A DNA stretch of 64,000 bases from an uncultured Rhodospirillaceae bacterium (GCA_964631725.1 CAZVYX010000003.1:19209-83208); one strand, 5' to 3'. Shown: positions 6,319 to 62,368, counted from the first letter of the stretch. Numbers and translations: made by a program. Notes: a model not told the origin generated them from the sequence alone.

Positions 6319-6349
6319 GGCGGTTTCTGCAGTCCTAGCCCCCGATGTC

Positions 6350-6787
6350 CTAACCGTGGCGGCCATATCGGGGAAGCCAGCGTACTTTTGACGGATAGAC
6401 GTGGCGGTGCCCATGACGCCGCGCATGGCGGCGTTCCTGCCGGATCTGGCGGCGATGGGCCTTGCGGTCCTGCCGGCGATGCCAAGCCTCATGCTGGCGG
6501 CAACGACGGTGGGCCTCATGACCCGAGCGATGCTTCTTGCGCTTCAGGTAATTGTGCTGCCCGTGGCGAACCTGGTCCCGCGCCGCCATATGCCGGCCGT
6601 ACACCAGGCGGCAGGCGCCACCATCGCACTTCAGGCTGACGACCGGCGCGATATACGGGTTTGTTTGCTGATGGCGGACCGGCCAGGGGTGATGATTGCG
6701 CCCTTGGCGCCAGTCCTGCGCCTGGCCGGGGCCGGCGGTGCAGATCACGATCATTGCCGCCAGGAATGAGACGATTTGCGTTTTCAT
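6350..6787 (-). CDS. hypothetical small secreted His/Arg-rich protein
   Basis: MKTQIVSFLAAMIVICTAGPGQAQ signal peptide with GAGAGGGA upstream of the ATG. The rest is low-complexity and basic, so this could be spurious in a high-GC genome. Confidence 0.3.
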   Translation of the reverse strand: MKTQIVSFLAAMIVICTAGPGQAQDWRQGRNHHPWPVRHQQTNPYIAPVVSLKCDGGACRLVYGRHMAARDQVRHGQHNYLKRKKHRSGHEAHRRCRQHEAWHRRQDRKAHRRQIRQERRHARRHGHRHVYPSKVRWLPRYGRHG

Positions 6788-6981
6788 GATGTATCCCTCT
6801 CGGTTACTTAGTGAAAAGCCGTTAAACGATGACGGCATTTTGACCGAGGCAGCCTGAACCAAAGCTGAGGTCCGGGTTCATCTAGTGTTCAGCATTGGTC
6901 TCTTGGGAAATTGTCCGAATATTAACCATTAATTTGTACTGATACCCTGGCAAATATTGGCGCTTGAGGGATTAGTACGTC

Positions 6982-8397: not shown

Positions 8398-8808
8398 CCT
8401 AAGCATGAAGGCATCCGGTTCCGGCAGTGACTCGAAACCATACTGACGATAAAGGCCGTGAGCATCGGCGGTGGCCAATAGGAAACGGGTCACATCCGCC
8501 AAATCGGGATGCGCGACGATCCGCGCCATCAGCCACTTGCCCAGGCCCTTTCCGCGCAATTCATCCAGGACAAAGACATCCGACAGCCAGGCGAAGCGGC
8601 ACTGGTCGGTCACCACCCGGGCGAAACCGACCTGCCGCCCGCCGTCTTCGTATATGCCGAAGACGATGGCATTCTCGATGGACCGGCGGATATTCTCTTT
8701 GGCCGTGCCCTGGCCCCAATAGGTCTGGGCGATATAGTCCACGGTAAAGTCCCAATCCAGACGGCCGGGTTCGGTCGAGATGGTGTACCCGTCCCGTTGC
8801 CATTCCAT
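8386..8808 (-). CDS. GNAT family N-acetyltransferase
   Basis: 140 aa containing the VLDELRGKGLGKWLM acetyl-CoA binding motif. Confidence 0.7.
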   Translation of the reverse strand: MEWQRDGYTISTEPGRLDWDFTVDYIAQTYWGQGTAKENIRRSIENAIVFGIYEDGGRQVGFARVVTDQCRFAWLSDVFVLDELRGKGLGKWLMARIVAHPDLADVTRFLLATADAHGLYRQYGFESLPEPDAFMLRSQV

Positions 8809-8821
8809 CGGAAGCGCCCGC

Positions 8822-9598
8822 CTAGGCGGTCTGCTTGTTCTTCGCAGCAGCGATGTCCGCGGACATGTCGCGGGGATCCGTTGCGGTGAGGGAGACCTCC
8901 GACACCATGGCGCGGCGCGGCAGACCGACCGCCATCATCACGGCGGCCGAGATATCCTCGGGCATCATCATACGGGCACGGGTCGCCTCATCAGGGGGCA
9001 GGGCCCGGTTGTCCAGGATCGGCGTATCCACCTCGCCCGGGTTGACGGTGATGGCCCGGATACCGAAGGGCCGCATTTCCTGGGCCAGGACATTCATGTA
9101 GACCCGCGCCGCCGTTTTCGCCGCGCTGTAAGCCGCACCCGCCATGACCGAGGGGTTGACCCCCGCCATGGAGGCGATCATCACCACATCGCCCTGGCCC
9201 TTTTCGACCATGGCCGGCATCAGGCAACGGGTTAGCACCATCGGCCCCATGGTGTTGACGTCCATGACATCGCGCCATTCCTCCGCCCCGATATAGCGGG
9301 CACTTCTGATCTTGGAACTGAAACCGGCGTTGTTAATCAGAATATCGATTACGCCGTGTTCCTCCAGCAGGGCGGCGGCGAATGCCTCGATGGCATCCGG
9401 GTCCGTCATGTCACAAATTACCTGACTGGCCGTGCCGCCCGCGTCCGTGATCAGCTTGACCGTTTCCTCCAACGGCGCCGCCCGGCGGCCCGAAACAATG
9501 ACCTTGACCCCGGCATCGGCCAAATCCTGGGCGATGGCCCGGCCAATGCCGGTGCCCCCGCCGGTGACCAATGCCGTTTGACCCTGCAATGAACTCAT
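8822..9598 (-). CDS. SDR family oxidoreductase
   Basis: TALVTGGGTGIGRAIA Rossmann motif and a YSAAK catalytic motif. Confidence 0.8.
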   Translation of the reverse strand: MSSLQGQTALVTGGGTGIGRAIAQDLADAGVKVIVSGRRAAPLEETVKLITDAGGTASQVICDMTDPDAIEAFAAALLEEHGVIDILINNAGFSSKIRSARYIGAEEWRDVMDVNTMGPMVLTRCLMPAMVEKGQGDVVMIASMAGVNPSVMAGAAYSAAKTAARVYMNVLAQEMRPFGIRAITVNPGEVDTPILDNRALPPDEATRARMMMPEDISAAVMMAVGLPRRAMVSEVSLTATDPRDMSADIAAAKNKQTA

Positions 9599-9679
9599 GA
9601 CGTTGTTTCTCCCAAATATTCAATCAATCGGTTTCGCACCTGTGGCACACTGTATACCAAGGTGGGCCAATAGGAACGG

Positions 9680-41096: not shown

Positions 41097-41690
41097 ATGC
41101 AATTACTTGATGATATTCAAACCAAGGAATGCCTGATTTTCGCCAATACTTGGCAGATTTGGCGGGGTACAAAGCTGGTCCCGCACCGCGCCGATGTGCG
41201 GATCGAGGATATCAGCAACCTGTTGCATCTGATTTCGGTCATCGAAATAAAGGGGCCGGAAACGGCCAAGTTCCGCCTCGCGGGCACGGCCCTGTGCGAA
41301 GCCATGGGCATTGAGCTAACCGGCCTCAACTTCTATGACTTCACGACGCCGGAAGAACGTGGCCCCCGCATTGCGCGCACCCAAAAGGTCGTCGAGCAGC
41401 CTTGCGGTTCGCATTTTGTTTTTCCCATCGCCTATAGATCCGGGCGAACGGTGCAATCAGAGGTCTTGTCCTTTCCCGTGTGGCCAGACGACCCGGCCGC
41501 GCCACCGCAAATCTTTGCCATGTCCATGGCGCTGGAAGAAACAGGCATGGAAGGGCCCATGGCGGAGCCAAACCGGCTGCCCCTGGTGGATGGCTTTCAG
41601 TTCGTTGATATCGGCGCCGGGGTCCCCGATCCAGGCCTGGACCTGGCGGGGCGGCCGTCAGCATCCTTTGTCTTGCAAAAAGCCAGTTAA
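41097..41690 (+). CDS. small conserved PAS-like protein (PAS_5/DUF1457-like), paralog A
   Basis: 197 aa, MQLLDDIQTKECLIFANTWQIWRG...FRLAGTALCEAMGIELTGLNFYDF, with GAGGGGG RBS. Confidence 0.6.
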   Translation: MQLLDDIQTKECLIFANTWQIWRGTKLVPHRADVRIEDISNLLHLISVIEIKGPETAKFRLAGTALCEAMGIELTGLNFYDFTTPEERGPRIARTQKVVEQPCGSHFVFPIAYRSGRTVQSEVLSFPVWPDDPAAPPQIFAMSMALEETGMEGPMAEPNRLPLVDGFQFVDIGAGVPDPGLDLAGRPSASFVLQKAS

Positions 41691-41836: not shown

Positions 41837-42418
41837 GTGCAGTTGTTGGACGACATTCAAACAAGGGAATGCCGGGCCTTCGCCAAGGCCTGGCAAAACT
41901 GGCGCGGCGGCGAAACAGTGCCGCGCCGCGCCGACGTGCGCCTTGAGGACATCGGCAGACTGCTCCAACTGGTATCCGTAATCGAAGTCGTATCACAGGA
42001 ATTGGCCAGATTTCGCATCGCGGGCACCGCCCTATGCGAGGCTTTGGGTTTTGAGCTGACCGGCCTCAATTTCTTTGACTTCGCCACGCCGGAGGCGCGC
42101 GCGCCAGGTATTGCCCGCACACACCAAGTGGCCGGGCAGCCCTGTGGCTCGCATTATCTTCTTTCCATCACTTACAGTTCCGGACGCACCGTACCGACGG
42201 AGATTGTATCCTTTCCCGTCTGGCCTGATGATCCCTCGGCGCCGCCCCAGATCTTCGGTCTTTCCATGGCATTGGAGGAAATGCGTCTGGAGGGGCCGGC
42301 ATCGGAGAGTAATCAGCTATTCCGGGGCGAAGGATTCCGGTTCATCGACATCGGCGCCGGCGTGCCGGACCCCGCCCTGAAGCTGGCGGAACGGCCGCCG
42401 GCATCTCTCTTGCCGTAA
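41837..42418 (+). CDS. small conserved PAS-like protein (PAS_5/DUF1457-like), paralog B
   Basis: 193 aa with a GTG start, MQLLDDIQTRECRAFAKAWQNWRGG...FRIAGTALCEALGFELTGLNFFDF. It is collinear with paralog A, and roughly two-thirds of residues are identical by eye. Confidence 0.6.
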   Translation: MQLLDDIQTRECRAFAKAWQNWRGGETVPRRADVRLEDIGRLLQLVSVIEVVSQELARFRIAGTALCEALGFELTGLNFFDFATPEARAPGIARTHQVAGQPCGSHYLLSITYSSGRTVPTEIVSFPVWPDDPSAPPQIFGLSMALEEMRLEGPASESNQLFRGEGFRFIDIGAGVPDPALKLAERPPASLLP

Positions 42419-49887: not shown

Positions 49888-50337
49888 CTACGGCCCGCAG
49901 GCGGCCACATACGCCTCCAGCCGGCGGCGCAGGTCATCATCGATGGGCAGCGGCCGGCCGTCTTCCAGGTTGGTCACGACCAGGGCGGAGCGGGCGACCA
50001 GACGCTGTTCGCCATTCACACGGCCAACAAAGCGGGCGCGTATGGACGAAGTGCCGATATGCTCCAGGTAAAGGGTAATCTCCAACGGTTCGCCCAGGCG
50101 GCAGGGTGCCTCGAATGTGCATTCGGTATGGGCCGTGGGCAGCCCCAACCGGCGCTCCAGGATAAAATCAGCGTATTTCAAATCCAACGCCTGGGTGAAC
50201 CATTCCTCCACCACGGCCTGCAGCATCTCGAAATAGCGGGGAAAAAAGACATAGCCCGCCGGGTCCGTATGAGTGAAGCGCACGGGCAGTCCCAGGGTAA
50301 AAGGCGCCAGTCCCACCGCCGTTGTGTCATTGCCCAT
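49888..50337 (-). CDS. hotdog-fold acyl-CoA thioesterase (4HBT/YbgC-like)
   Basis: FTHTDPAGYVFFPRYFEMLQAVVEEW. Confidence 0.65.
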   Translation of the reverse strand: MGNDTTAVGLAPFTLGLPVRFTHTDPAGYVFFPRYFEMLQAVVEEWFTQALDLKYADFILERRLGLPTAHTECTFEAPCRLGEPLEITLYLEHIGTSSIRARFVGRVNGEQRLVARSALVVTNLEDGRPLPIDDDLRRRLEAYVAACGP

Positions 50338-50414
50338 GGCTTCCTCCATTCCTATCCGTTGCCGCCGGCCGGCAACATGGTGGGTTAATACCCTTCATAT
50401 GATAGGCTGATCCA

Positions 50415-51077
50415 ATGACGCAACGGCGCGCACGCAGAAGATGGCTGGGCCGGCTGCCCGCATTTCTGGCGCTGGTGGGGATGCTGTCGTCCAGCGCCGC
50501 CGCTATAGAGCAAGCTGCACTGGACAAGGCACCCGGCCCGGCGGTATCCGGCAATTTGACGGGCTGGCTGCTGGTCGCGACGCCGCGCCTGCGCGACCCA
50601 AGGTTCGCCAGATCGGTGATCTTCCTGGCCCAGCACGACGACAAGGGCGCCATGGGCCTGATCGTGAACCGGCAGATCACGGTCGAACCGGCATCGGATT
50701 TATTACAGCGCATAGTGGGCGAAAAGGGGCCCGACGACGGCGGCCGCGATGTGCGTATCCACTACGGCGGCCCGGTCGAGCCGAGATTTTGGCATATCCT
50801 CCACTCCTCCGACTACCGGGGCAAAGGCACCATGGTGGTGTCAAAGCAGGTGTCGATGACCCGTAACGAAGATATCCTGCGCGCTCTGGCCCGGGGCAAG
50901 GGGCCGGCCAAGGGTTTCCTGGCGGTCGGCTATGCCGGCTGGGGGCCGGGCCAGTTGGTGGGCGAAATCCGGCGCAAGTCCTGGATTACGGTGCCGCCCG
51001 ACGACGGCATCGTGTTTGACGGCGAGATGCAGACCAAATGGCAGCGCGCCACGGACAAGCGCGGCGTCGATCTTTGA
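50415..51077 (+). CDS. YqgE/AlgH family protein (UPF0301) with an N-terminal signal-like extension
   Basis: Core LTGWLLVATPRLRDPRFARSVIFLAQHDDKGAMGLIVNRQ matches YqgE. It is preceded by RRARRRWLGRLPAFLALVGMLSSSAAA. Confidence 0.7.
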   Translation: MTQRRARRRWLGRLPAFLALVGMLSSSAAAIEQAALDKAPGPAVSGNLTGWLLVATPRLRDPRFARSVIFLAQHDDKGAMGLIVNRQITVEPASDLLQRIVGEKGPDDGGRDVRIHYGGPVEPRFWHILHSSDYRGKGTMVVSKQVSMTRNEDILRALARGKGPAKGFLAVGYAGWGPGQLVGEIRRKSWITVPPDDGIVFDGEMQTKWQRATDKRGVDL

Positions 51078-51089
51078 CAGCCTGGCCGG

Positions 51090-52787
51090 TCAATATCTTG
51101 CCGTGGCCCGCTCTATCTGCTCGATCATGATTTTGGCGAAGTCCGGGTCGTCAAAATATTCGTCATAGGCCTCTTGAATAAAGGCCAGGGTCACCGGATC
51201 GGGCAGGCCGTAATTGTTGAACGCGTTAGGCGGCTGGTCATCCCAGATCCCATCATGGCGGTAGCCCATCGCCTCCAGTAATTCGATGCCCTGCTTAGGT
51301 ATGGTCAGATCGACGACCAGGGCATCATCCGCCTCGCAGGCATCGTTTAGGGGCGGCGTATCGCCGGGGTAGTAGACGCTGGCCTGTTCGCCGCAGTAGG
51401 TCGCGCTCGATGGCGCCGCCGCGCCCCGCCCGACTGTTGAAAGCGCCAGGTTGGCGAGCACATCCTGGGTCGCGCCAAGCGCAATGCGGTCGCTTTTCTC
51501 GGCCCCGCCAAAGGCGCCAAGCGCCGTGGCGATCTGCATGTAGTGGCGCGCGGCGGAGACGTTCCGCGTCCGCGCAATGATCGCCGCCTCCTTCTTGATG
51601 CGGTCGAGAATGGCACCCTTGTTCTTGCGGATCGCCTGCATTTTGTAGCGAAGGCGCGAGACGGTGCCCGCTTCGAAGCGGGCCAGGGCATAGCGCTGTT
51701 GACGCGCCTTCCGCTTTTTCACTCCAGCATTGGACGCGGGCGCCCGCGCGGCGGTTTTGATGCCCGGCGGCTCGGCCCAGGGCGTACTTATAATTCCGCT
51801 GGGATCGTGTTTTTGCTGTCCGCCTGACGATTTTCGCCCACCGCCCGCCCGGCCGCGCCGCTTGCGTTCCCGGTATTTGGCGAAGCGCTGCAACATGGCC
51901 TGCTGGTTGCGCGCGCCGCCCGTGGCGGCCAGTTGTTTCAACTCCTCCACCGACAGCACACCCGACATATAGTCGGGTGCGTTGGGCTTCTTGATGTGGA
52001 TCGCCGCCATGTTCTTGAGCGATTTCAGGGTCTTGCGAAAATCGTCCGGAATGCACTTTTCGCCGGCCAGAACGACTTCCCGACACAGGCGCTGGGCGAC
52101 GCTGTCCCACAAATGCGCATCCTCGCAGGCAACGCCCTTTTTCTTCAGCTCGGCGCAACGGCGATGTTGCCGAAAGGAATCTTCCGGCGTTTTCGCCTTG
52201 AACGGGCCGTCGCCCCTGTTCTTGCAGGCCGAGTTGAAGGCCATCTGTGCCGGGTCGGAGGTGTCACAGGCGGTGAACGCGGCGTTGCGCCGGCCGGCAT
52301 CAATGCGGGCCTGTTCGGCGCGGCGGGCTTCTTCCGCCGCCTTGCGCCGGTTGATTTCGGCCTGACGCGCAACTTCTTCCTGCCACTTGCGTGCCGCCTC
52401 GGCCTGCAGGCGCGCCTGTTCCCGGGCCTGCTTCTGCTCGTAAGCCTGAATGCGCTGGCGATGCGCCGCGGCCTTTTGCTCAGCCTCCGCCGCCCAGGAG
52501 CTCATCAGGCCGACAATGCCTATGACGCCGGTTAGGGCCGACGCCGCCCTGTTTCCACCACTACCACCGCCGCTGTAAGAGCCGCCGCCGCGCCGGCCCG
52601 TGCAATAGGCCTGAATGGCATTGCGGTATTGCTGCGCCGCGGCATATTGCGCCGCCGGATTGTGGCCCCGCCGGGCATAATTCAGCGCCTGGTTCATACG
52701 GTTCCGCAATTGCGCGCAGCCCTGTTGTGCCGCTGCCGGCTCCGGCGCCAAGAGCATAGCCGCGAGCACCGCGATAGCGGCAGCCAT
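51090..52787 (-). CDS. hypothetical large secreted protein with a Gly-rich segment and a long Arg/Glu/Ala coiled coil
   Basis: Start taken at MAAAIAVLAAMLLAPEPAAAQQ. It contains GGGSYSGGGSGGN, the coiled-coil QAREQARLQAEAARKWQEEVARQAEINRRKAAEEARRAEQAR, several Cys pairs, and an acidic C-terminus. Confidence 0.5.
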   Translation of the reverse strand: MAAAIAVLAAMLLAPEPAAAQQGCAQLRNRMNQALNYARRGHNPAAQYAAAQQYRNAIQAYCTGRRGGGSYSGGGSGGNRAASALTGVIGIVGLMSSWAAEAEQKAAAHRQRIQAYEQKQAREQARLQAEAARKWQEEVARQAEINRRKAAEEARRAEQARIDAGRRNAAFTACDTSDPAQMAFNSACKNRGDGPFKAKTPEDSFRQHRRCAELKKKGVACEDAHLWDSVAQRLCREVVLAGEKCIPDDFRKTLKSLKNMAAIHIKKPNAPDYMSGVLSVEELKQLAATGGARNQQAMLQRFAKYRERKRRGRAGGGRKSSGGQQKHDPSGIISTPWAEPPGIKTAARAPASNAGVKKRKARQQRYALARFEAGTVSRLRYKMQAIRKNKGAILDRIKKEAAIIARTRNVSAARHYMQIATALGAFGGAEKSDRIALGATQDVLANLALSTVGRGAAAPSSATYCGEQASVYYPGDTPPLNDACEADDALVVDLTIPKQGIELLEAMGYRHDGIWDDQPPNAFNNYGLPDPVTLAFIQEAYDEYFDDPDFAKIMIEQIERATARY

Positions 52788-52976
52788 GGCCAACCGCCGC
52801 GCGGTTATCCCATATATTCCCCATCCGGTGATTGGCCCCTGTCCGATGCAGCGGTTCGTCATGACCAGATCCCAAGCTGCGGCATGCCACAAACAGTGAT
52901 GGATCTTACCATAATATGTTTCGCCAATGGGATTTTGCTGTGTATTTTATTACCTGCACTTGCGGAGGTCCTTGTA

Positions 52977-54248
52977 ATGTTTGGTTCCGTTGCTTACCCG
53001 CGCAAGGCCATGTTGGCTTCGGCCGCCGGGATTTACTGCCTGCTGGCGGCGTCATTTGCGTGCAGTGTTCCGGTCAAGGCGGCCGGGAATACGCCTGTGC
53101 CATCAACTACTTGGCTGCAGCTTGCCGATGCCCGCAAGGGCGCCGCCGACCGGCTGTTCCTCACGGCCATCAAGCTCTACCGCGCCGGCGATCTGGAGGG
53201 CGCGGCGGAGAATTTCGAGATGGGCCTGAGCATCGACCCCGAAAACCCCGTGGCGCATTTCTACTTTGCCGAAACCCTCAGCGACATGAAGCGGGACAAG
53301 GCCGCGCTGGCCCACTACCGAAAGGCGTCGGAACTGGCCCCCGGTTCCGAGGAAGGCATCATCGCCAACCTGAAGCTGAAGAAACTGGCGCAAAAGTTTG
53401 CGCCCGGAAAAGTGTTCAAAGACTGCGATAGCTGCCCCGAAATGGTCGTCATTCCGGCGGGATCGTTCATCATGGGTTCGAGGGAGCAAGAACGAATTTG
53501 GGCGGCCAAAAGCGCTTGGCCAGATGCCAAATACAGCTCGGAAAGGGCCTCCCATAAGCGCATGTATGACGGTATGGAATCTCCAAACCGGCGGGTCACG
53601 CTGCGCTACGCCTTCGCTATTGGTCGCTATGAAGTGACCGTCGGTCAATGGAAGGCATGCGTGGCGGCGGCTAAATGCAAGGAACTGCCGAAAGATTTCG
53701 ACTATAGGGGCAAACCGGTCCAAAGACCCGACGATGTCGCGGTTCATAAAGTGAGTTGGAACGGCGTCAAATCATACCTGCAATGGCTCAGCCTGAAGAC
53801 CGGCCTACGTTATCGATTACCAAGCGAATCCGAGTGGGAATATATGGCGCGCGCCGGCACCACGACAGCCTTCAATTTCGGGCAGAACATCGATGTCAGC
53901 CAAGCGCATTTCTCGGATGTCTATGGCGGAATAAGCCATTACGCACCGATTTCGGTCGGGCGGTACCAAGCCAACGCATTTGGTGTTTACGACGTACATG
54001 GAAACGTTGCCGAAATAACCGAGGATTGTCAGGGCGCGTATGGCAGCGTGCCGTCAGACGGCAGCGCACATACGCCGTCGGGATCCTATAGCAATTGCCA
54101 TGCCAGAATGACGCGCGGTGGTTCCTTTTCCGACGGCCGGCACGCAGTCCGATCGGCGGCACGCGGCGTTACGATGGTCCTGGGCCTTGACGGCAAAGAC
54201 TTCCATGCAATTGGTTTGGGCTTCCGCGTGACGCGAGATTTGGATTGA
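52977..54248 (+). CDS. secreted TPR-repeat protein fused to an FGE-sulfatase (SUMF1/formylglycine-generating-enzyme-like) domain
   Basis: GGAGG RBS, signal peptide MFGSVAYPRKAMLASAAGIYCLLAASFA, and a TPR-like module LQLADARKGAADRLFLTAIKLYRAGDLEGAAENFEMGLSIDPENPVAHFYFAETL. Then VVIPAGSFIMGS...YRLPSESEWEYMARAG...RGGSF, the FGE-sulfatase fold. Confidence 0.7.
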   Translation: MFGSVAYPRKAMLASAAGIYCLLAASFACSVPVKAAGNTPVPSTTWLQLADARKGAADRLFLTAIKLYRAGDLEGAAENFEMGLSIDPENPVAHFYFAETLSDMKRDKAALAHYRKASELAPGSEEGIIANLKLKKLAQKFAPGKVFKDCDSCPEMVVIPAGSFIMGSREQERIWAAKSAWPDAKYSSERASHKRMYDGMESPNRRVTLRYAFAIGRYEVTVGQWKACVAAAKCKELPKDFDYRGKPVQRPDDVAVHKVSWNGVKSYLQWLSLKTGLRYRLPSESEWEYMARAGTTTAFNFGQNIDVSQAHFSDVYGGISHYAPISVGRYQANAFGVYDVHGNVAEITEDCQGAYGSVPSDGSAHTPSGSYSNCHARMTRGGSFSDGRHAVRSAARGVTMVLGLDGKDFHAIGLGFRVTRDLD

Positions 54249-54256
54249 GGTTCGAA

Positions 54257-55291
54257 ATGAAACGAACCAGACCATACAGATGTATTTCAGCAGCGCTCTC
54301 GGTTTTGCTTGCCATAACGGTTCTTGGCTCCGCCCAGGCCCGTGATCCAAAGACGTCCCGATTCCTGCAACTGGCCGATGCGAAGTCAGAGGCGGCAGAT
54401 CAGGTCTTTCTGGAGGCCGTGAAGCTCTACCGCGCCGGTGATCTGGCCGGCGCGGTGGAACAGTTCGAACTGGGCCTGTCGATCGACCCCAATAATGCCG
54501 CCGGGCATTTCTACCTGGCCAAGACTTATGATGGCCTGAAGCGCCGCAACGATGCGTTGATCCACTATCGGAAGGCGGCTGAACTTGGCCCCGGCACCAA
54601 GGAAGGCATTATTGCGGCGGCAACTGTAAAGAGCCTCGAGAAGAAGCTTCGGGATAAGGCCGCCGCCGAACAGAAACGCGTCGAGGAAGAGCGGAAACGG
54701 AAGGAGGTCTCGGCGCTGCTCAGCACGGAAAATATCGACCGCTGTTACAAGAACAAGCAACCGAAAACCATGCTGCAAGGCTGCAATGCCTTGATTCGCT
54801 ATTACTCGGCCAAGAACGAGATGACGCCTGATCCTATGCACATGTTCAGTTTGGCCGGAGCCATTCTACAGCGGGCCATCGCCCATGGACACAACCGCGA
54901 CTGGAGCGCCGCCATTGACGATTTCGAACAGGTCATCGCGATACGCAAGCCTGTCATCATGGATAGCGAGTTCAAGACAAACAATGCCAATTCGCTTGTC
55001 AGCGCAACCAATGGACTGGCCTGGCTGCGCGCCACCTGTCCGGATGGTCGTTATCGCTCAGGCGCCGAGGCGGTTCGTCTTGCGGCCGAGGCGGTACGCA
55101 TGCGGCCCTGGCCGGAATATCGCGACACCCTGGCCGCCGCCTATGCCGAGGCCGGTCGGTTCGAGGATGCCGCCAGTGAGCAGGAAGCCGCGATTGCCAT
55201 GCTCAACGACAGAGGCAAACAATTGTATCTGAAGAAATTCCGGGCCCGATTGGCCCTCTATCGTCAGGGGAAACCGTATCGAGCTCCATAA
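54257..55291 (+). CDS. secreted TPR-repeat protein, paralog 2 of the tandem array
   Basis: Signal peptide ISAALSVLLAITVLGSAQA, then the same N-terminal TPR module (FLQLADAKSEAADQVFLEAVKLYRAGDLAGA). The C-terminus ends in ARLALYRQGKPYRAP. Confidence 0.6.
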   Translation: MKRTRPYRCISAALSVLLAITVLGSAQARDPKTSRFLQLADAKSEAADQVFLEAVKLYRAGDLAGAVEQFELGLSIDPNNAAGHFYLAKTYDGLKRRNDALIHYRKAAELGPGTKEGIIAAATVKSLEKKLRDKAAAEQKRVEEERKRKEVSALLSTENIDRCYKNKQPKTMLQGCNALIRYYSAKNEMTPDPMHMFSLAGAILQRAIAHGHNRDWSAAIDDFEQVIAIRKPVIMDSEFKTNNANSLVSATNGLAWLRATCPDGRYRSGAEAVRLAAEAVRMRPWPEYRDTLAAAYAEAGRFEDAASEQEAAIAMLNDRGKQLYLKKFRARLALYRQGKPYRAP

Positions 55292-55717
55292 TGGCCAAGG
55301 TAAGCTGATCCAGCCTGGGCGAACGATGATGCATTGAGATCTGATATGACACGCGCATTGACATACCGATTGCCGTTGACACTGCTTGGTGTTTTTCTTG
55401 TTCTCGCCCTCCATGCTCCCGCCAATGCCGGCGATCCGCAGGCGCCCGTGGTCCTGCAAGTCGCGGACGCGCGGTCGGAGGCGGCGGACCGCTTCTTCCT
55501 CAAGGCGGTGAAGCTGTATCGCTCCGGCGATCTGACGGGTGCGGCGGAGCAGTTCAAGCTTGGTCTGAGCATCAATCCGGAGAACCCGGTGGCGCACTAC
55601 TATTACGCCGAAACCCTGAAGGCCATGCAGCGCGAGGCGGAGGCCCTGGCGCATTACGAAAAAGCGGCGAAATTCGGCCCTGACACCACCGAAGGCATCA
55701 TGGCGGCGGCGGTCATG
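55260..55717 (+). repeat. direct repeat copy 1 (~458 bp), spanning gene end, intergenic spacer and 5' end of the next TPR gene
   Basis: tcgtcaggggaaaccgtatcgagctccataatggccaaggtaagctgatccagcctgggcgaacgatgatgcattgagatctgatatgacacgcgcattgacataccg... recurs at 56337. The first ~220 bp match exactly and the rest shows scattered mismatches. The repeat period is 1077 bp. Confidence 0.85.
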
Positions 55718-56368
55718 CCAGGGCTCAGGCGTAAGGTCGAGGCGACCGAAAAGAAGAAAACGGAAAGGAAAGCGGAAAAAAAGGCCGCCGCCGAGAAGGT
55801 TCATTGCTCGCCTTTCGCTACCGGCACGACAGATGTGATCAAGGTGTGCAGTGAAAAAATTCGAGCCTTTGCGGAGCAACAAGTGAATCCGTCGAAGTTC
55901 ATGTTCAAGGATCCGGCCTACATGGGTGCCGACTATCACACTATCCGCGCAAATGCATACTTCCGGAACGGCAATTTTTCTGCTGCTGTTCGTGACTTCG
56001 AGAGATCCATGGATTTGGAGAAACAGGTCGTTTGGGAAAACTACCCAGGATTAGCGACTCCAGATATGACGCGTTGGGAAGCGCTCAGGGGATTCGCCTG
56101 GCTGCGGGCGACCTGTCGGGACAAACGTTACCGCTCGGGCGCTGACGCGGTTCGCCTCGCCCTTGAAGCCGTTCGTATGCACCGCTGGCCGCAAGCGCAA
56201 GATACCCTGGCCGCCGCCTACGCCGAAGCCGGTCGGTTCGGGGATGCCGTCAGGGAGCAGCAAGCGGCGATTGCAAACCTTTCCGATTCCGGCAAACAAC
56301 AATTCTTGAAACAATTCCAGGCTCGATTGGCCCTCTATCGTCAGGGGAAACCGTATCGAGCTCCATAA
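55346..56368 (+). CDS. secreted TPR-repeat protein, paralog 3
   Basis: MTRALTYRLPLTLLGVFLVLALHAPANA signal, a TPR module, and the same ...ARLALYRQGKPYRAP end. The 5' part lies within direct repeat copy 1. Confidence 0.6.
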   Translation: MTRALTYRLPLTLLGVFLVLALHAPANAGDPQAPVVLQVADARSEAADRFFLKAVKLYRSGDLTGAAEQFKLGLSINPENPVAHYYYAETLKAMQREAEALAHYEKAAKFGPDTTEGIMAAAVMPGLRRKVEATEKKKTERKAEKKAAAEKVHCSPFATGTTDVIKVCSEKIRAFAEQQVNPSKFMFKDPAYMGADYHTIRANAYFRNGNFSAAVRDFERSMDLEKQVVWENYPGLATPDMTRWEALRGFAWLRATCRDKRYRSGADAVRLALEAVRMHRWPQAQDTLAAAYAEAGRFGDAVREQQAAIANLSDSGKQQFLKQFQARLALYRQGKPYRAP

Positions 56369-56794
56369 TGGCCAAGGTAAGCTGATCCAGCCTGGGCGAA
56401 CGATGATGCATTGAGATCTGATATGACACGCGCATTGACATACCGATTGCCGTTGACACTGCTTGGTGTTTTTCTTGTTCTCGCCCTCCATGCTCCCGCC
56501 AATGCCGGCGATCCGCAGGCGCCCGTGGTCCTGCAACTGGCCGACGCGCGATCCGAAGCGGCGGACCGCTTCTTCCTCAAGGCGGTGCAGCTGTACCGGG
56601 CCGGCGATCTGACGGGCGCGGCGGAGCAGTTCGAGTTTGGCCTGAGCATCAATCCGGAGAACCCGGTGGCGCACTACTATTACGCCGAGACCCTGAAGGC
56701 CATGCAACGCGAGGCGGAGGCCCTGGCCCATTACGAAAAAGCGGCGAAATTCGGCCCCGACACCACCGAAGGCATCATGGCGGCGGCGGTCATA
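56337..56794 (+). repeat. direct repeat copy 2
   Basis: Same as copy 1. The identical 103-aa minus-strand ORFs 55264..55575 and 56341..56652 in the ORF track are by-products of this repeat. Confidence 0.85.
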
Positions 56795-57499
56795 ACAAAG
56801 CTCAAGCGCAAGGTAGACGCGGCCAAGGCGGCGCAAGACGCCAAAACGCGGGCGCAAGCCGATATCGCCGATGAAAAGGCGTGCGAGGATTGGGAATCGA
56901 CGCCAAGCCGGCGGAACCAAGGCTGTACGGCGGTCATCGTGAAACTTTCAGCCCCGCCGATTACTGCTTTGAAAGACTTGGCGGTGGCATTGTGGCGACG
57001 GGCCTCCAACCAAGCTCTACTCGGCAAATGCGCGGCGGCTGTCAAAGATCTAGTGCGGGCGCGTAATCTATTGCTTGAGCTGACAAAGGGAAAACCCCGC
57101 CAAGACAACTTTGACTACCTTACTCTCGAAGATGTCACTATTGGCCTCACAAATGTCCTAACGACGTCACCGCGCCGCCAATGCAGGTCGGGAAAGGAAG
57201 CTTTGCGATTGGCCGCGGAGTTCCCAATTTTCCGCGATGACAAGACGGAGCGACATCATAGGGCCCTGGCGCCCATCTATGCGGAAGTCGGACAATTCGA
57301 CCGCGCCATACAAGAGCAGGAAGCAGCCATAGAATCGCGGAAGCAATTCTTCAAGGAAGTGTCCTGGTCCAAGGCCGATATGAAAACAGTTCTTGATAGC
57401 ATGCAGCAAGTTTTGGAAGTCCTGCGAAAACATAAGCCAATCCGATATTGCAAGATGGCGGAAAAGCAATTTACAGAACTCTGCGACGGGATCGATTAG
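56423..57499 (+). CDS. secreted TPR-repeat protein, paralog 4 (divergent C-terminal half)
   Basis: The first ~150 codons are near-identical to paralog 3 at the DNA level. The C-terminal half is different (…KPIRYCKMAEKQFTELCDGID). Confidence 0.6.
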   Translation: MTRALTYRLPLTLLGVFLVLALHAPANAGDPQAPVVLQLADARSEAADRFFLKAVQLYRAGDLTGAAEQFEFGLSINPENPVAHYYYAETLKAMQREAEALAHYEKAAKFGPDTTEGIMAAAVITKLKRKVDAAKAAQDAKTRAQADIADEKACEDWESTPSRRNQGCTAVIVKLSAPPITALKDLAVALWRRASNQALLGKCAAAVKDLVRARNLLLELTKGKPRQDNFDYLTLEDVTIGLTNVLTTSPRRQCRSGKEALRLAAEFPIFRDDKTERHHRALAPIYAEVGQFDRAIQEQEAAIESRKQFFKEVSWSKADMKTVLDSMQQVLEVLRKHKPIRYCKMAEKQFTELCDGID

Positions 57500-57512
57500 C
57501 TGCCATACGCCA

Positions 57513-58478
57513 TCAGGCGGTCTTGGCGTTGCGTTCAGTGAAATGGCACAGGCCCAGCAGGGCGCGGGCCTCGTCCTCGACGGCTGCGGGCCGGTGGATG
57601 AAGCTGGCCGGGCGCGGCGCTGCCAACAGGATGCCGTCACCGTCCACGTGACAACGGATACTGTCGCAATTCATTGCCCACGCTAGTTCATCCAGCGCCT
57701 CGACAAGTCCGCTATCAGCGGCTTGGGCCGCGTCTTCCGGGTTGTCGGCGCGAACCTGGAAGTTACCAGTCAGCCCTCCACCGACTTCCGACGGCAGGTT
57801 GGCCGCCGCGATCCAGCAGGATTTGACGCCAGCGCCCAGCAAGGCCAGCCGGCCTTGTAGCGGCATTGGTGATGGCAACGCGGCCAGGAAACCCTCGAAC
57901 ACGGTCTCATCGTCGCCGTCGGGCCAGATCATGCTCAGTTCGACGTCGGCAATCTCGCAGGCGCTACCGTTCGAACCCCGGCGGAACAGTGCGCGGCACC
58001 GGGGCTGGGCAAATTCCGCCACCAGCCCGGCCCTGAAAAAAGATGTTGCGTCAAAATCCTTCCCACTGCCGATTTCGTACCGCCAGCCGGGCCGGAACGC
58101 GGCAATGGTGCGAAACAGCAGGGCGCGGATGTCCAGGTTCTGCCGCCGCGCCACATCCATGGCGCCCAGGCCGCCCAGGATAAGGCCGATGATGATCAGG
58201 CCGCCGCCAAGCCAAGCCAGATCGATCCGCGCGGCCAGGCCCGTATCCCCGGCCAGCATCAGCTGCCAAAACCGACCATCGAAGCGATAGACGATCCAGG
58301 CCATGGCGGCGGCAAGCCCCGCCAGCCCGCCCAGAACGATGCGCCGGATCATCGCCCCACGCCGGCGGCGGGCGGTCGGTTGCAACCGGCGCAGCTCGGG
58401 TGCGGCGATGCGCGCGAAGACCGCCGCGTAGCCCGCCTCGTGCGGCGCCCGTTCGCGAAAGCCATAGTCCTCGCTCAT
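57513..58478 (-). CDS. hypothetical membrane protein: cytoplasmic N-terminus, two TM helices, ~200-aa C-terminal domain
   Basis: Start at MSEDYGFRERAPHEAGYAAVF with AAGAGGAAG RBS. TM segments IVLGGLAGLAAAMAWIVY and LGGGLIIIGLILGGLGAM. No recognisable catalytic motif. Confidence 0.5.
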   Translation of the reverse strand: MSEDYGFRERAPHEAGYAAVFARIAAPELRRLQPTARRRRGAMIRRIVLGGLAGLAAAMAWIVYRFDGRFWQLMLAGDTGLAARIDLAWLGGGLIIIGLILGGLGAMDVARRQNLDIRALLFRTIAAFRPGWRYEIGSGKDFDATSFFRAGLVAEFAQPRCRALFRRGSNGSACEIADVELSMIWPDGDDETVFEGFLAALPSPMPLQGRLALLGAGVKSCWIAAANLPSEVGGGLTGNFQVRADNPEDAAQAADSGLVEALDELAWAMNCDSIRCHVDGDGILLAAPRPASFIHRPAAVEDEARALLGLCHFTERNAKTA

Positions 58479-58581
58479 GGCATCTTCCTCTTTCCGCCCG
58501 ACGGGTGGGACCGATTGTCCTCGCATCGAAACAGCGAAAGCAGGCGCGGCCATTGTCCCACCCGCGCGCGTCGCGACGCAA

Positions 58582-59079
58582 CTAGCCCGGGTCGATTTCC
58601 TGGAACACCCCCAAATTCCTCGCAACCTGGAAATAACCCTCGATATCGAACCTTGCTGACAGGTTCACAGAGGCGATCCGTTCCAGGGCGTCGAAATCGT
58701 CGGAACCGAACGTCAAGTCGGACCCCGGCAGTTCCGCCTTGGCGCGCATCTCGATCGGTCCGGTTCGTGTCGTCCCGCCGCCCTCAAGAAACCTGGTCGG
58801 AAAGCTCAATTGCAGCACCGGCAGTTCGTCCCCCTTACTGTCGATTGGCGCGGCATATTGGCTGCCCAGGATCAGGAGAGCCGGATCCCTGAACGCGATT
58901 CTCGGTTGCGACAGCCCCGGCATGCCAGTGTTGTCCTGCTCCGGCGCGGTGTTGTGAAGGATATAATCGATCGTGAAGGTCTCGCCGACATTGATCGAGC
59001 GGTCGAACCCGACCGCGCTGGTCTCGGCGGTCAGGTCGAGATAGCTTCTGGCCTCCGCCCATAATGAATACATCTGCAT
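58582..59079 (-). CDS. hypothetical soluble protein (~165 aa), upstream partner of the membrane protein
   Basis: MQMYSLWAEARSYLDLTAETSAVGFDRSINVGETFTIDYILHNTAP... with GGGAGAAA RBS; no known motif. Confidence 0.45.
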   Translation of the reverse strand: MQMYSLWAEARSYLDLTAETSAVGFDRSINVGETFTIDYILHNTAPEQDNTGMPGLSQPRIAFRDPALLILGSQYAAPIDSKGDELPVLQLSFPTRFLEGGGTTRTGPIEMRAKAELPGSDLTFGSDDFDALERIASVNLSARFDIEGYFQVARNLGVFQEIDPG

Positions 59080-59134
59080 ATCATAATTTCTCCCAGAATC
59101 TGTGGATCGACGCCATTGCCGGTTTTGCAACGGG

Positions 59135-59311
59135 CTAGCGGCGTCGCTCCAGAATGGTCGCAACCAACCAGGCGCCGCAAATGGCGACAGTCGCACCGCC
59201 GATGACCATGAAGGCCTCGTCCCAGCCCACATAACGTTCAAGGATATGACCGAGGAGCAACGCCGCAATGATGGCTCCGGCAACGGTGTATTTTCTTGCG
59301 CGCGGTGTCAT
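59135..59311 (-). CDS. possible small two-helix membrane protein (58 aa)
   Basis: MTPRARKYTVAGAIIAALLLGHILERYVGWDEAFMVIGGATVAICGAWLVATILERRR. There is no clear SD sequence. Confidence 0.2.
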   Translation of the reverse strand: MTPRARKYTVAGAIIAALLLGHILERYVGWDEAFMVIGGATVAICGAWLVATILERRR

Positions 59312-59486
59312 CGGGCAATCGTAGACCAATGGGACTTGCGCCGTCCCGAATTATCACACCGAATCCCGCTTCCTGAGAGCCCAAAGCGGAAGGGCCCAGC
59401 CGGCTTCAAATGTGGGACTATGGGTGGGGCTAATCACAGACGTAGACGCGGCATTTGATGTATTTCAATAAGTTAGCTGCCAAAAA

Positions 59487-59576
59487 TGGCGGATGGGGTG
59501 GGATTCGAACCCACGAGACGCTTTCACGCCTGCTGGTTTTCAAGACCAGTGCCTTCAACCACTCGGCCACCCATCC
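59487..59576 (-). tRNA. tRNA-Ser (anticodon UGA)
   Basis: The reverse complement GGATGGGTGGCCGAGTGGTTGAAGGCACTGGTCTTGAAAACCAGCAGGCGTGAAAGCGTCTCGTGGGTTCGAATCCCACCCCATCCGCCA folds as a class II tRNA. It has a 7-bp acceptor stem, anticodon loop CTTGAAA, a long variable arm, T-loop GGTTCGAATCC, and an encoded CCA. Confidence 0.9.
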
Positions 59577-59654
59577 ATCGGCTCGGTTGCACGCGTGTAG
59601 CAAATCAGCCGCGCCCTGGGAAGCGCAATTGCGCCGCCGCCAGATGCCGTCGCG

Positions 59655-61343
59655 CTAATTGCGGCTTTCCAACAAGCGCCGGGCGATGACCTGGGCCTGA
59701 ATTTCGCCCGCACCCTCGAATATATTCAGAATACGGGCATCGCAGAGCACCCGGGAGATCGGGAACTCCAACGAAAAACCATTGCCACCGTGGATCTGCA
59801 CCGCGTTGTCGGCCGATGACCAGGCGACCCGCGCCGCCAGCAGCTTGGCCATGCCCGCCTCCAGATCGCAGCGCCGGCCCTGATCCTTTTGCCGGGCGGC
59901 ATAATAGGTTAATTGCCGCGACAGCATGATCTCCACCGCCATCCAGGCCAGCTTGCCCGCGACCCGTGGGAAGCGCACGATGGCGCCGCCGAACTGCTGG
60001 CGCTCGATACCGTAGTTCAGGCCAAGCTCGAAGGCATTCTGGGCCACGCCGACGGCCCGGGCGGCGGTCTGGATGCGGGCGGACTCAAACGTCGCCATGA
60101 GCTGTTTGAAGCCGTTGCCTTCCTCGCCGCCCAATAGATTGTCGGCCCCGACCTCAAAACCATCGAAGGCGATCTCATATTCCTTCATGCCGCGATAGCC
60201 CAGCACCTCGATCTCGCCGCCCGACATGCCCTCCGCCGGGAACGGATCATCGACCGTGCCGCGCGGTTTTTCGGCCAGAAGCATGGACAAGCCCCTGTAA
60301 CCGCGTTGATCGGGGTCGGTGCGCGCCAGCAGGGTCATCATATCGGCCCGGGCGGCATGGGTGATCCAGGTCTTGTTACCCTGGACCTTGTAGGCATCGC
60401 CGTCACGGATGGCGCGGGTGCCGACACTGCCCAGGTCCGAGCCCACATTCGGCTCGGTAAAGACGGCGGTGGGCAGGATTTCGCCCGAGGCGATCTTGGG
60501 TAGCCAATGTTCACGCTGTTGCTCGGTACCGCCGTGCAGGATCAATTCGGCGGCGATCTCGGATCGCGTGCCAAGGGAGCCGACACCGATATAGCCCCGG
60601 CAAAGCTCCTCCGACACCACGCACATGGCGGTCTTGCCCATGCCGTGGCCGCCGTATTGCTCGGGGATAGTCAGGCCGAAGACGCCCATCTCGCTCATGC
60701 CGGAGACCACGTCCATGGGGATCAACTCGTCACGCATATGCCAGCCATGGGCATCGGGGGTGACATTTTCCTCGGTGAAGCGGCGGAATTGGTCGCGCAC
60801 CATGGACAGGGTCTCATCCAGGCCCAGTTCGCCGAATTCGGCACTGCTGGCCGCCTCGACCAACAGCAGGGCCAGTTGGTCGCGGCCGGCCTGGGTATTG
60901 CCCTGGGCGATCAGACGCTGCACCGCGTCGGTGCGAAAGGCCGCCAGATCATCACCGTCCAGGCCCAGATCGATGGGCCGCACCACCTCGATCTGGCTCA
61001 TGGCGATGCCATTGGCCATTTCCGTCAGATAGCCGCCAAAACCCAATTGCAGCAGCAACTGCTCCAATCGGCTGAACCGGCCATCGGCCGACAATTTCTC
61101 CGCCCAAGCCAGGCTTTGCCGCAGGGCCTCGTTATAGGTCGCCAGCCAGGCCAGGCCATGCACGGCGAACTGCTGCGCCTCTATCAGGCCGGCATTGACG
61201 GCGCCGTCCCTTGATACCATGGCGCGGACGCCGTTCCGGGCCCGGGCCAGCAAATCGTCAGCCGATGCCAGCGCGCTGCCGCATAACTGCAATAAATCCT
61301 CAACGGCGATTCCGTCCTCGGGGCTGTCGGCAGCTTGCATCAT
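59655..61343 (-). CDS. long-form acyl-CoA dehydrogenase family protein
   Basis: 562 aa; an N-terminal ~180-aa extension, then ACAD core motifs (TEPNVGSD, GGNGF...) in the C-terminal half. Confidence 0.8.
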   Translation of the reverse strand: MMQAADSPEDGIAVEDLLQLCGSALASADDLLARARNGVRAMVSRDGAVNAGLIEAQQFAVHGLAWLATYNEALRQSLAWAEKLSADGRFSRLEQLLLQLGFGGYLTEMANGIAMSQIEVVRPIDLGLDGDDLAAFRTDAVQRLIAQGNTQAGRDQLALLLVEAASSAEFGELGLDETLSMVRDQFRRFTEENVTPDAHGWHMRDELIPMDVVSGMSEMGVFGLTIPEQYGGHGMGKTAMCVVSEELCRGYIGVGSLGTRSEIAAELILHGGTEQQREHWLPKIASGEILPTAVFTEPNVGSDLGSVGTRAIRDGDAYKVQGNKTWITHAARADMMTLLARTDPDQRGYRGLSMLLAEKPRGTVDDPFPAEGMSGGEIEVLGYRGMKEYEIAFDGFEVGADNLLGGEEGNGFKQLMATFESARIQTAARAVGVAQNAFELGLNYGIERQQFGGAIVRFPRVAGKLAWMAVEIMLSRQLTYYAARQKDQGRRCDLEAGMAKLLAARVAWSSADNAVQIHGGNGFSLEFPISRVLCDARILNIFEGAGEIQAQVIARRLLESRN

Positions 61344-61541
61344 GTTCCTCTTTCAATCTGTCTCCGGACCCGGCCACGAATTTCAGCGATAGGTGATGGT
61401 GGTCACTCGCGAAATCCGCCGGCGGGCCCATCTGTTAATGGCACACCACGATCTTCCTCGTGATTAGCGACTCAGAGGCCCGATGTCGAGTACCCCTCCC
61501 CCCTGGCATCGGCGGTTCGAATACCGTTCTGTCTCTGCACC

Positions 61542-61579
61542 TGACGGCGGCCGGCGAAATGCCGGTCGCCGTTTCTTTT
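61542..61579 (+). terminator. orphan rho-independent terminator in a 500-bp non-coding region
   Basis: GACGGCGGCCGGC gaaat GCCGGTCGCCGTT followed by tcTTTTTgg. There is no + strand CDS upstream; acd is on the minus strand. Confidence 0.55.
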
Positions 61580-61851
61580 TGGTTAATCAATTCTAACCAT
61601 GGTGGCAAAAATCGACCAAAGTGTGATGGCCGTCAATGTTTCGCTAAGTCTTTGGGTGCTAGGTTCTTGTTCAAGGCGCGGATCGGTGCCTGAGGCCTCT
61701 GGTGAGAGTGGCCACCCCCGTTACCCTTCCTCCGGCGCAGATGGCGGTGGTCTAGAGGTTGCAGGTTCGATCCGCGCCCCCAATCACACCTTTGCCGCAC
61801 GCTATTTCAGTAAATGCCAACGATTTCGCCCGAATGGGCGCAATTCGGCCG

Positions 61852-62247
61852 CTAAAGCAGATCAACACCGGCGCGCGCGCAATCTTCGTCTTCCTGCCCG
61901 GTACCGCCGCCGACACCGCAGGCGCCTTCGACAATGCCATTTCGAATGATCGGTACCGCCCCCTGCCCCATGATCATGTGGCCTCCTTCGGCGGCAACGA
62001 TTCCACGGAATGTGGGATGGTCGGCCCGTTCGGTAAGCTCGCCGCTGGGACGGCCAAACGAGGCCGAGGCGACCGCCTTGCCCTGGCTGCCATAGGCGCC
62101 GGCCCACATGGCGTTATCCATGCGCTGGAATGCCATCAATCGGCCGCCGGTATCGCATACGGCAACGTTGATCCTGATGTTGAGTTCTTCCGCCTTGGCC
62201 AAGGCGCCTTGCGCGATGCGATTGGCCTCTTCCAGGGTCAGCGCCAT
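61852..62247 (-). CDS. GlcG/HbpS-like heme-binding protein (DUF336)
   Basis: 131 aa, MALTLEEANRIAQGALAKAEELNIRINVAVCDTGGRLMAFQRMD... Confidence 0.65.
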   Translation of the reverse strand: MALTLEEANRIAQGALAKAEELNIRINVAVCDTGGRLMAFQRMDNAMWAGAYGSQGKAVASASFGRPSGELTERADHPTFRGIVAAEGGHMIMGQGAVPIIRNGIVEGACGVGGGTGQEDEDCARAGVDLL

Positions 62248-62368
62248 GGTCTGTCTCCTTCTTCCTCTGGATTTGTCGAAGCATTACAGATTGATCACGA
62301 CAACAGGTAGCAAGACTACTGGATGATGGTCATTGTCACTAGCGCCAAGGCAAGCGCCTACCGCCGGA

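Follow-up and report, generated by a model that had tools for sequence, protein, structure and literature searches.

To our knowledge, non-catalytic domains of the formylglycine-generating enzyme (FGE)/C-type lectin (CLec) fold are abundant in bacteria, but only for a handful, PvdO, TagR and PorK, has a partner or role been established. FGE/CLec folds have been described as variable ligand-binding or sensor domains (PMC7159879, PMC10907252, PMC13581612, PMC3501461); they tolerate extreme variation and have also been termed 'neutralising' domains (PMC7159879, PMC10907252, PMC13581612). TagR (PA0071), from the TagQRST-PpkA system of Pseudomonas aeruginosa, is a periplasmic FGE-sulfatase-domain protein that works through protein contacts in the envelope, its partners being the lipoprotein TagQ and the PpkA pathway, and not by formylglycine generation (PMC10482370, PMC13411936). 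Here we describe a locus in a 64,000-nucleotide (nt) stretch of DNA from an uncultured Rhodospirillaceae bacterium (GCA_964631725.1 CAZVYX010000003.1:19209-83208), hereafter the window, in whose coordinates positions are given unless another contig is named. In this locus BIG (51090..52862, minus strand), which encodes a large coiled-coil protein, is divergent from four tandem genes, T1 to T4, that share a module of tetratricopeptide repeats (TPRs), the first of them fused to an FGE-sulfatase-fold domain. All five proteins have predicted signal peptides. Comparison with relatives suggests an accessory cell-envelope cassette whose conserved core is two exported proteins working together, the N-terminal half of BIG (BIG-N) and a TPR-FGE protein, a reading to which we give roughly an even chance of being correct. 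That the BIG-N/TPR-FGE pair is a genuine, repeatedly co-inherited cassette appears probable from its recurrence, whereas the T2-T4 paralogs and the C-terminal half of BIG are lineage-specific additions to it. We found no description of the pairing in the literature searched.

The evidence for the pair comes from the genomic contexts of relatives (L numbers below), obtained from 12 exact-protein look-ups. The combination of module and FGE domain in one protein is very uncommon, with about 5 clusters in 5.8e9 proteins. In a close relative (L012) the locus is syntenic: thioesterase, DUF179, BIG and T1 genes follow in unchanged order, BIG and T1 being divergent, and amino acid identity to the window is 96% for the housekeeping flanks, 72% for DUF179, 81% for BIG and 56% for T1. 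Two Rhodospirillales metagenome-assembled genomes (L101/L102) encode a 351-amino-acid (aa) BIG-N homolog, 26% identical to BIG, and 270 nt downstream on the same strand a 458-aa lipoprotein that carries the TPR module (6e-32 with a hidden Markov model (HMM) of the module) and an FGE domain (Pfam, 1.3e-56). At L104 a 286-aa BIG-N homolog is followed after 106 nt, again on the same strand, by a 525-aa lipoprotein (module HMM 1.3e-25, Pfam FGE 1.1e-15); the FGE proteins of both L101 and L104 carry lipoboxes. A fourth locus (L096) holds a pair truncated by an insertion sequence (IS): its BIG-N homolog is divergent and lies 208 nt from a gene with signal peptide and module, which is frameshifted and abuts a transposase fragment. 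A BIG-N gene adjoining a gene with export signal, module and FGE domain, the arrangement by which we define the cassette, is thus present in the window, L012, L101/L102 and L104, and neighbourhood comparison bears out the link between TPR-FGE and coiled-coil proteins that had been proposed from the window alone (the sequence-only reading). Between lineages, pairwise identity is 25-36% for BIG-N and for its TPR-FGE partner alike, which fits long co-inheritance, and the three linked lineages differ in gene orientation and flanking genes. As negative controls we used 80 genome loci with generic PvdO-like FGE proteins, and none of them (0/80) had the module or BIG-N.

Wider searches added little to this set. 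When genome contigs were scanned with the alignment of the T1 family, all that came back were generic PvdO-like FGE proteins (<=42% identity), metagenome-contig searches with alignment A4 and module alignment A5 gave 600 pattern matches each and no confirmed relative, and tblastn of BIG-N and P0245 against 72,556 plasmids gave no match. Going by the T1 gene, the GTDB species representatives do not include the source lineage. Other genes stand beside the pair in individual genomes. At L101 genes for a Cys-rich exported protein of 199 aa that matches nothing in Pfam (7399-7998 +) and for a GerE/LuxR-type regulator (6166-7308 +) come before it, with a phage-type integrase just upstream; at L104 it is preceded by a MORN-repeat protein (450-1760 +).

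BIG itself has no match in Pfam, NCBIfam, PADLOC or PHROG. Its most likely start is MTNR at 52862, because the same start is kept in L012, giving a protein of 590 aa and therefore a BIG/T1 divergent spacer (52863..52976) of 114 nt, not 189; the earlier model of 565 aa from 52787 with a 189-bp gap had the right open reading frame (ORF) and, on the preferred start, the wrong lengths. A word-indexed search recovered only BIG and one partial relative, and an exhaustive HMMER search with BIG gave 18 matches among 1.84 billion (1.84e9) representatives. These matches, with the C-half occurring as a stand-alone gene, show BIG to be a fusion of two separable modules. The C-half (about residues 314-590; 51090..51920, minus strand) lies outside the conserved pair and has homologs at 78% (P0243) and 44% (P0244) identity; on L094 (125-958 +) it forms a 277-aa gene of its own, convergent with an ABC-F-type ATPase gene in an unrelated context.

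BIG-N (residues 1-335; 51858..52862, minus strand) is the conserved, Pfam-less part that pairs with TPR-FGE proteins elsewhere, and from about residue 25 to 335 it represents a sparse family of 260-370-aa proteins. Members open with a signal peptide, a Cys-bracketed helical hairpin (AAQNYxNxYxxxC), a Gly/Ser linker and a Gly-rich hydrophobic helix, and continue with an Arg/Glu coiled coil, C…NPF…C…NPF, WDSxxKRxC…C[IVL][PA]DxxR and a C-terminal VLSxEQYRRLAxGE helix. In BIG, an Arg/Glu/Ala helix of ~95 residues leads into the Cys-pair region with C[IVL][PA]DxxR and then into the C-half. Invariant residues of the family are C49, C199, C213, C260, C270, D273 and R276. Since the three Cys pairs are conserved and none is of the CxxC type, they argue for BIG-N being extracytoplasmic and disulfide-bonded. 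AlphaFold predicts the ~95-residue single helix with confidence, which together with the ORF upholds the earlier description of a divergent, large secreted coiled-coil protein with a Gly-rich linker and Cys pairs. Full-length BIG modelled without an alignment had a mean predicted local distance difference test score (pLDDT) of 51.5, with low confidence in the C-half; the N-half modelled with a 9-sequence alignment reached 67.3, with a predicted template modelling score (pTM) of 0.28. Foldseek of the N-half model against the PDB returned nothing with E < 1, and the BIG-N profile gave only coiled-coil noise against PDB sequences (best E 0.011).

The partner in the window, T1 (423 aa; 52977..54248, plus strand; start kept in L012 and L002), consists of a signal peptide, the TPR module and a PvdO-like FGE-sulfatase/C-type-lectin-fold domain (53397..54245, Pfam PF03781). 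Residues 153-419 match the Pfam FGE-sulfatase profile at 6.2e-36 over positions 2-254 of 255, so the claim of a complete FGE domain holds for the fold; it does not hold for the enzyme. The best solved relative of T1 is periplasmic PvdO (5hha; E 7e-36 to 1.5e-35), with ToxD next, and true FGEs match only at about 1e-09. Aligned with human FGE (2aft/2afy), T1 has Asp at the position of Cys336 and a 3-residue deletion that removes Cys341. These two residues are the catalytic, copper-binding cysteines of FGE. The sequence-only reading had named this conserved Cys pair beforehand as a point to check, and it is absent from T1; none of six T1-family members aligned has a Cys in the catalytic motif, although the family alignment shows conserved cysteines elsewhere. 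Because both catalytic cysteines are missing, T1 is not a formylglycine generator. No sulfatase gene was found among the Pfam-annotated genes of the window (39.4-64 kb) or of L001. PorK/GldK lipoproteins and Treponema denticola TvpA also match T1, the former only partially (TIGR03525, 55.9 bits against a cutoff of 350) and with no type IX secretion system (T9SS) genes present. Among PHROGs, T1 matches only one labelled 'kinase', through the FGE fold, and T2 has one weak match of unknown function. We rejected T1 as the target of a diversity-generating retroelement (DGR) because the window has no template repeat: a whole-window repeat search shows no copy of the T1 3' region. Nor is there a reverse transcriptase among the annotated window neighbours, beyond which no dedicated search was made.

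The module that T1 shares with T2-T4 spans ~96 aa and three TPR repeats. It lies at residues 44-140 of T1 (53106..53396, plus strand) and at about 54359-54646, 55448-55735 and 56525-56812 (plus strand) in T2, T3 and T4. At the DNA level it is a 4-copy direct repeat (family D1) of 251 nt with 70-73% identity and spacings of 1250, 1089 and 1077 nt. Pairwise BLASTP E values among T1-T4 run from 1e-34 to 1e-99, and 55 alignment columns, including LQxADA...LYRxGDL...GLSIxPxN, are invariant in all four proteins. This similarity is far beyond chance and the four are true paralogs, so the ORFs, the BLASTP scores, the DNA repeat and the invariant columns all agree with the earlier account of four same-strand secreted TPR proteins with a common motif. 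Pfam TPR matches fall at residues 58-124 of T1, and in T2-T4 both in the N-terminal module and in the C-terminal part, in keeping with the extra TPR-like repeats that had been claimed for the latter. TPR_2 scores 30.7-54.2 bits in T1-T3 (cutoff 27) and TPR_19 25.8-31.6 bits in T1, T3 and T4 (cutoff 25), with T2 under the cutoff at 20.6. The Tgl, PilW, LcrH/SycD, MamA and PrsT models of NCBIfam give matches of 18-28 bits, all far under their cutoffs of 105-312. No characterised family was matched by T1-T4 above its curated threshold in the HMM searches.

T2 (344 aa; 54257..55291, plus strand) follows its module with a Lys/Glu-rich linker and a TPR-like C-terminal domain, T3 (340 aa; 55346..56368, plus strand) is a mosaic paralog, and T4 (358 aa; 56423..57499, plus strand) ends in a divergent TPR-like domain. 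Their signal peptides end in AQA or ANA, and their most likely start codons are the ATGs at 54257, 55346 and 56423. The amplification is lineage-specific: T2-T4-type paralogs are restricted to the clade of the window and L007, the sole close family of T2 beyond that clade is P0002 (65% identity), and relatives are otherwise generic, ~30%-identical TPR proteins. In T3 the 5' end shares 88-100% identity with T4 and the 3' end 66-100% with T2, which indicates unequal crossing-over or gene conversion within the array. The four-gene array is no assembly artefact, because window positions 53772-62368 recur with 100% identity on an ENA contig (L097) and T3 is present on 11 contigs; that T3 is an assembly chimera we rejected, given these 11 independent contigs and a C-terminal part only 66-85% identical to T2. 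The T2/T3 (55230-55460) and T3/T4 (56307-56537) junctions are identical over ~270 nt, and four contigs end at window position 55365, inside the identical junction. A 156-kb JGI contig (L001) is without T3, T2 being joined to T4 with 0 mismatches on either side, which reflects either copy-number polymorphism in the population or assembly collapse.

Module and FGE domain diverge at different rates in close relatives. Compared across the window, L012 and L007, the TPR module keeps 84-90% identity and the FGE domain 49-62%, against 96% in the genes that flank the locus in the window and L012; distant homologs show about equal divergence of the two domains. At L013, a 529-aa exported protein (8014-9603 +) immediately upstream of a T1-like gene carries the module at its C-terminus, and the module is therefore mobile between architectures. 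Because the module is conserved while the FGE domain diverges, and because it heads three paralogs and ends the 529-aa protein, we read the contrast as the signature of a putative conserved docking module on exchangeable heads. The TPR module would then be a protein-protein docking element, with BIG-N as the candidate for its common partner because the two are co-inherited; contacts on BIG-N might be made by its NPF/xPF motifs or by the C-terminal tail NPFE/NPFQ. The FGE fold and the C-terminal domains of T2-T4 would serve as exchangeable ligand-binding heads for display in the periplasm or envelope, PvdO-type redox heads being the less likely option. In this lineage, tandem duplication and gene conversion have placed copies of the module on three more proteins whose C-terminal domains differ. 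Candidate roles are sensing at the envelope, adhesion or conflict. A more specific proposal is a periplasmic 'dock-and-display' system, in which an oligomeric, disulfide-stabilised BIG-N scaffold recruits interchangeable, fast-diversifying heads (the FGE/CLec fold and the TPR-like C-terminal domains) through the TPR module, and in which the repertoire of heads would arise by tandem duplication, gene conversion and allelic replacement at the boundary of the module. We consider this proposal unlikely; if true, it would be an envelope analogue of the adaptor-plus-variable-sensor logic of cytoplasmic conflict systems.

Several features indicate that the cassette is accessory, namely its low GC content, its tRNA-Ser boundary and its association with integrase or IS elements elsewhere. 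GC content is 57-60% in the block against 62-65% in the flanks, and tRNA-Ser(tga) (59487-59576, minus strand) bounds the block ~2 kb past T4. Between T4 and this tRNA, 57513-59311 (minus strand) holds two or three ORFs (346-370 aa with hydrophobic segments, 165-233 aa and 58 aa) for which Pfam, NCBIfam, PADLOC and PHROG gave no match; these ORFs, BIG and T1-T4 make up an ~8.4-kb lineage-specific block of deviating GC beside the tRNA. Integrase or IS elements adjoin L101, L096 and L011, the last of which is IS-rich.

Adjacency of the two genes in three lineages could also mean that they encode an enzyme and its substrate, the FGE fold of T1 modifying BIG, for example at the Cys of C[IVL][PA]DxxR, as FGE acts on the CxPxR motif of sulfatases. 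Enzymes of the FGE superfamily do act on cysteine or peptide substrates (FGE, EgtB, OvoA and PvdO, from NCBIfam matches), and the Cys-x-(Pro/Ala)-Asp-x-x-Arg motif is invariant in BIG-N. Such a relationship is nonetheless distinctly improbable in our estimate: T1 and all family members lack the two catalytic cysteines of FGE, the C-terminal RGGS...RSAxR motif is degenerate in the FGE domain of L104, the spacing of the BIG-N motif is two residues off CxPxR, and no part of T1 is less conserved than the FGE domain, an unusual state for an enzyme whose substrate is fixed. Far harder still to credit is that T1, like PvdO, matures a pyoverdine-like siderophore or chromophore in the periplasm. PvdO is the top match of T1 in both the PDB and NCBIfam, yet T1 scores 176.4 bits against the 500-bit cutoff of the PvdO equivalog model (NF051459), and no nonribosomal peptide synthetase (NRPS) or pvd-type genes occur among the Pfam-annotated neighbours in the window (39.4-64 kb), L001, L101 or L104; on these two grounds T1 does not classify as a PvdO equivalog, and PvdO is moreover without the TPR module. 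A role in envelope conflict or sensing, with a variable FGE/CLec head recognising a phage, competitor or host-surface ligand and the TPR paralogs widening the repertoire, has its comparators in TagR in type VI secretion system (T6SS) activation and in DGR-diversified CLec receptors. Even between near-identical genomes the FGE domain has diverged very rapidly, its close homologs include fusions to caspase, TIR, trypsin, kinase and peptidoglycan-binding domains, FGE/CLec domains are treated as sensors (PMC7159879, PMC13581612), and the cassette occurs in mobile or accessory contexts. We still consider this role improbable, as no effector or signalling domain lies in or beside the cassette, there is no PADLOC or PHROG match besides the generic FGE fold (PADLOC defence models gave 0 families for BIG, T1, T2, T4 and both downstream ORFs), the window has no DGR template repeat, and known STAND-type FGE sensors are cytoplasmic whereas T1-T4 and BIG are exported.

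It may also be that there is no system, T1-T4 being an ordinary lineage-specific expansion of periplasmic TPR proteins, one with a captured FGE domain, and BIG an unrelated syntenic neighbour. The near lack of relatives of T2-T4-type proteins beyond generic TPR proteins and the weakness of all NCBIfam TPR matches would suit this, as would the loci that hold one partner without the other, which, with several further points, weigh against a conserved two-protein core. L007 has T1-like and T2-like genes and no BIG within 4.9 kb upstream, the divergent 618-aa neighbour of the T1-like gene at L013 has only a weak match to BIG-N, one that is compositionally biased, and L103 has BIG-N without any TPR or FGE neighbour. 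The gene set as a whole, whose conservation the sequence-only reading had put up for test, is not conserved: T2-T4 are clade-limited apart from L007, the BIG C-half is separable (L094) and these three loci have single partners. The sample is small, with three linked lineages and one degraded locus. The Gly-rich helix of BIG-N varies between members, being strongly hydrophobic in some and bearing Gln, Asn or Glu in others; it could be a transmembrane segment, which would place most of the protein in the cytoplasm, away from a periplasmic TPR partner, and the stand-alone homolog of the BIG C-half has no signal peptide. Fast divergence of the FGE domain could come from relaxed constraint or allelic replacement, not from selection for new ligands. 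Against the absence of any system stand the adjacency of two very rare families in three lineages with only 25-36% identity to one another and with different gene orientations and flanks, and the lack of the pairing in all 80 control loci, and we judge that explanation unlikely. A co-inherited pair of exported proteins, BIG-N and TPR-FGE, remains the reading we prefer.

Some further features surround this pair. Within the BIG/T1 spacer, a 31-nt AT-rich block at 52902-52932 (GATCTTACCATAATATGTTTCGCCAATGGGA) is 100% kept in L012, where the surrounding DNA is about 80% identical, and is a candidate shared promoter/operator site; scanning 50300-59500 for consensus promoters and terminators gave nothing beyond shuffled expectation, and no promoter in the spacer. 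Beyond BIG lies a DUF179/AlgH gene (50415-51077, plus strand; Pfam 2.6e-40), and the YqgE/AlgH homolog with a signal-like leader that had been reported there is confirmed. The family is normally cytoplasmic. Here an N-terminal extension of ~45 aa has an Arg-rich n-region and a hydrophobic stretch (MTQRRARRRWLGRLPAFLALVGMLSSSAAA|IEQ), and its conservation in L012, including an in-frame upstream MKQRRAPRR, suggests that the leader is a real export signal. Between genomes with 96% identity in the neighbouring genes, this protein reaches only 72%. Its linkage does not go beyond local synteny. Farther away, just downstream of uvrB and on the opposite strand to it, two adjacent genes (41097-41690 and 41837-42418, plus strand; 73% DNA identity) encode paralogous small PAS_5 (PF07310) proteins.

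The locus offers a testable handle on one subfamily of FGE-fold proteins, as it supplies a conserved genomic partner from a Pfam-less family and delimits the TPR docking module clearly. Its paralogs and alleles form a natural series in which the module is constant and the heads vary. If the pair interacts, it would represent a new envelope complex in uncultivated marine Alphaproteobacteria and a model for the deployment of exported FGE-fold domains; otherwise the locus amounts to a TPR expansion confined to one lineage and of limited interest.

Compared with known systems, the cassette shares individual elements with several. T1 has the Pfam family (PF03781) and overall fold of SUMF1 and bacterial FGE and differs from them in the Asp at Cys336, the deleted Cys341 and a match of only E 1e-09. 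The variable proteins of DGRs and the STAND/VMAP 'FGS' sensors (TvpA, Mtd-like) resemble T1 in having a variable FGE/CLec head C-terminal to other domains, and T1 matches T. denticola TvpA at 8e-08; unlike DGR proteins, T1 varies over its whole domain and not in a C-terminal variable region, and unlike STAND/VMAP sensors it is exported and without a nucleoside triphosphatase or effector domain. TolA-CpoB (YbgF), NlpI and PilF/PilW/Tgl provide a functional analogy only, a long helical envelope protein with a periplasmic TPR scaffold: the matches of the module to Tgl, PilW, LcrH/SycD and MamA and of the BIG helix to TolA (E 0.007) are far under cutoffs and amount to generic TPR or compositional similarity, and no tol-pal, pilus or secretin genes adjoin the cassette. 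PorK/GldK and GldJ are, like T1, exported or lipoprotein FGE-fold proteins, serving as structural partners in an envelope complex, and match it weakly (TIGR03525 4.4e-15; PDB 9ots 3e-08); they are components of the Bacteroidota T9SS. TagR, which we liken to T1 by description, is without a TPR module, and genes for a T6SS, a kinase or TagQST are absent here. Closest is PvdO, which is exported, shares the N-terminal motif VFKDCxxCPEMVxxPAGxFxMG, is the nearest solved relative (5hha) and reportedly also lacks the FGE catalytic cysteines; unlike T1, this 'dihydropyoverdine dehydrogenase' (NF051459) has no TPR module and sits in pyoverdine clusters. An exported FGE-fold protein had been thought atypical, a view that the export of PvdO, TagR and PorK/GldK contradicts. 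The domains of T1-T4 are thus of known kinds and exported non-catalytic FGE folds have precedents; the novelty lies in the BIG-N family, in its repeated association with a TPR-module/FGE-fold protein and in the amplification of the module as a tandem array.

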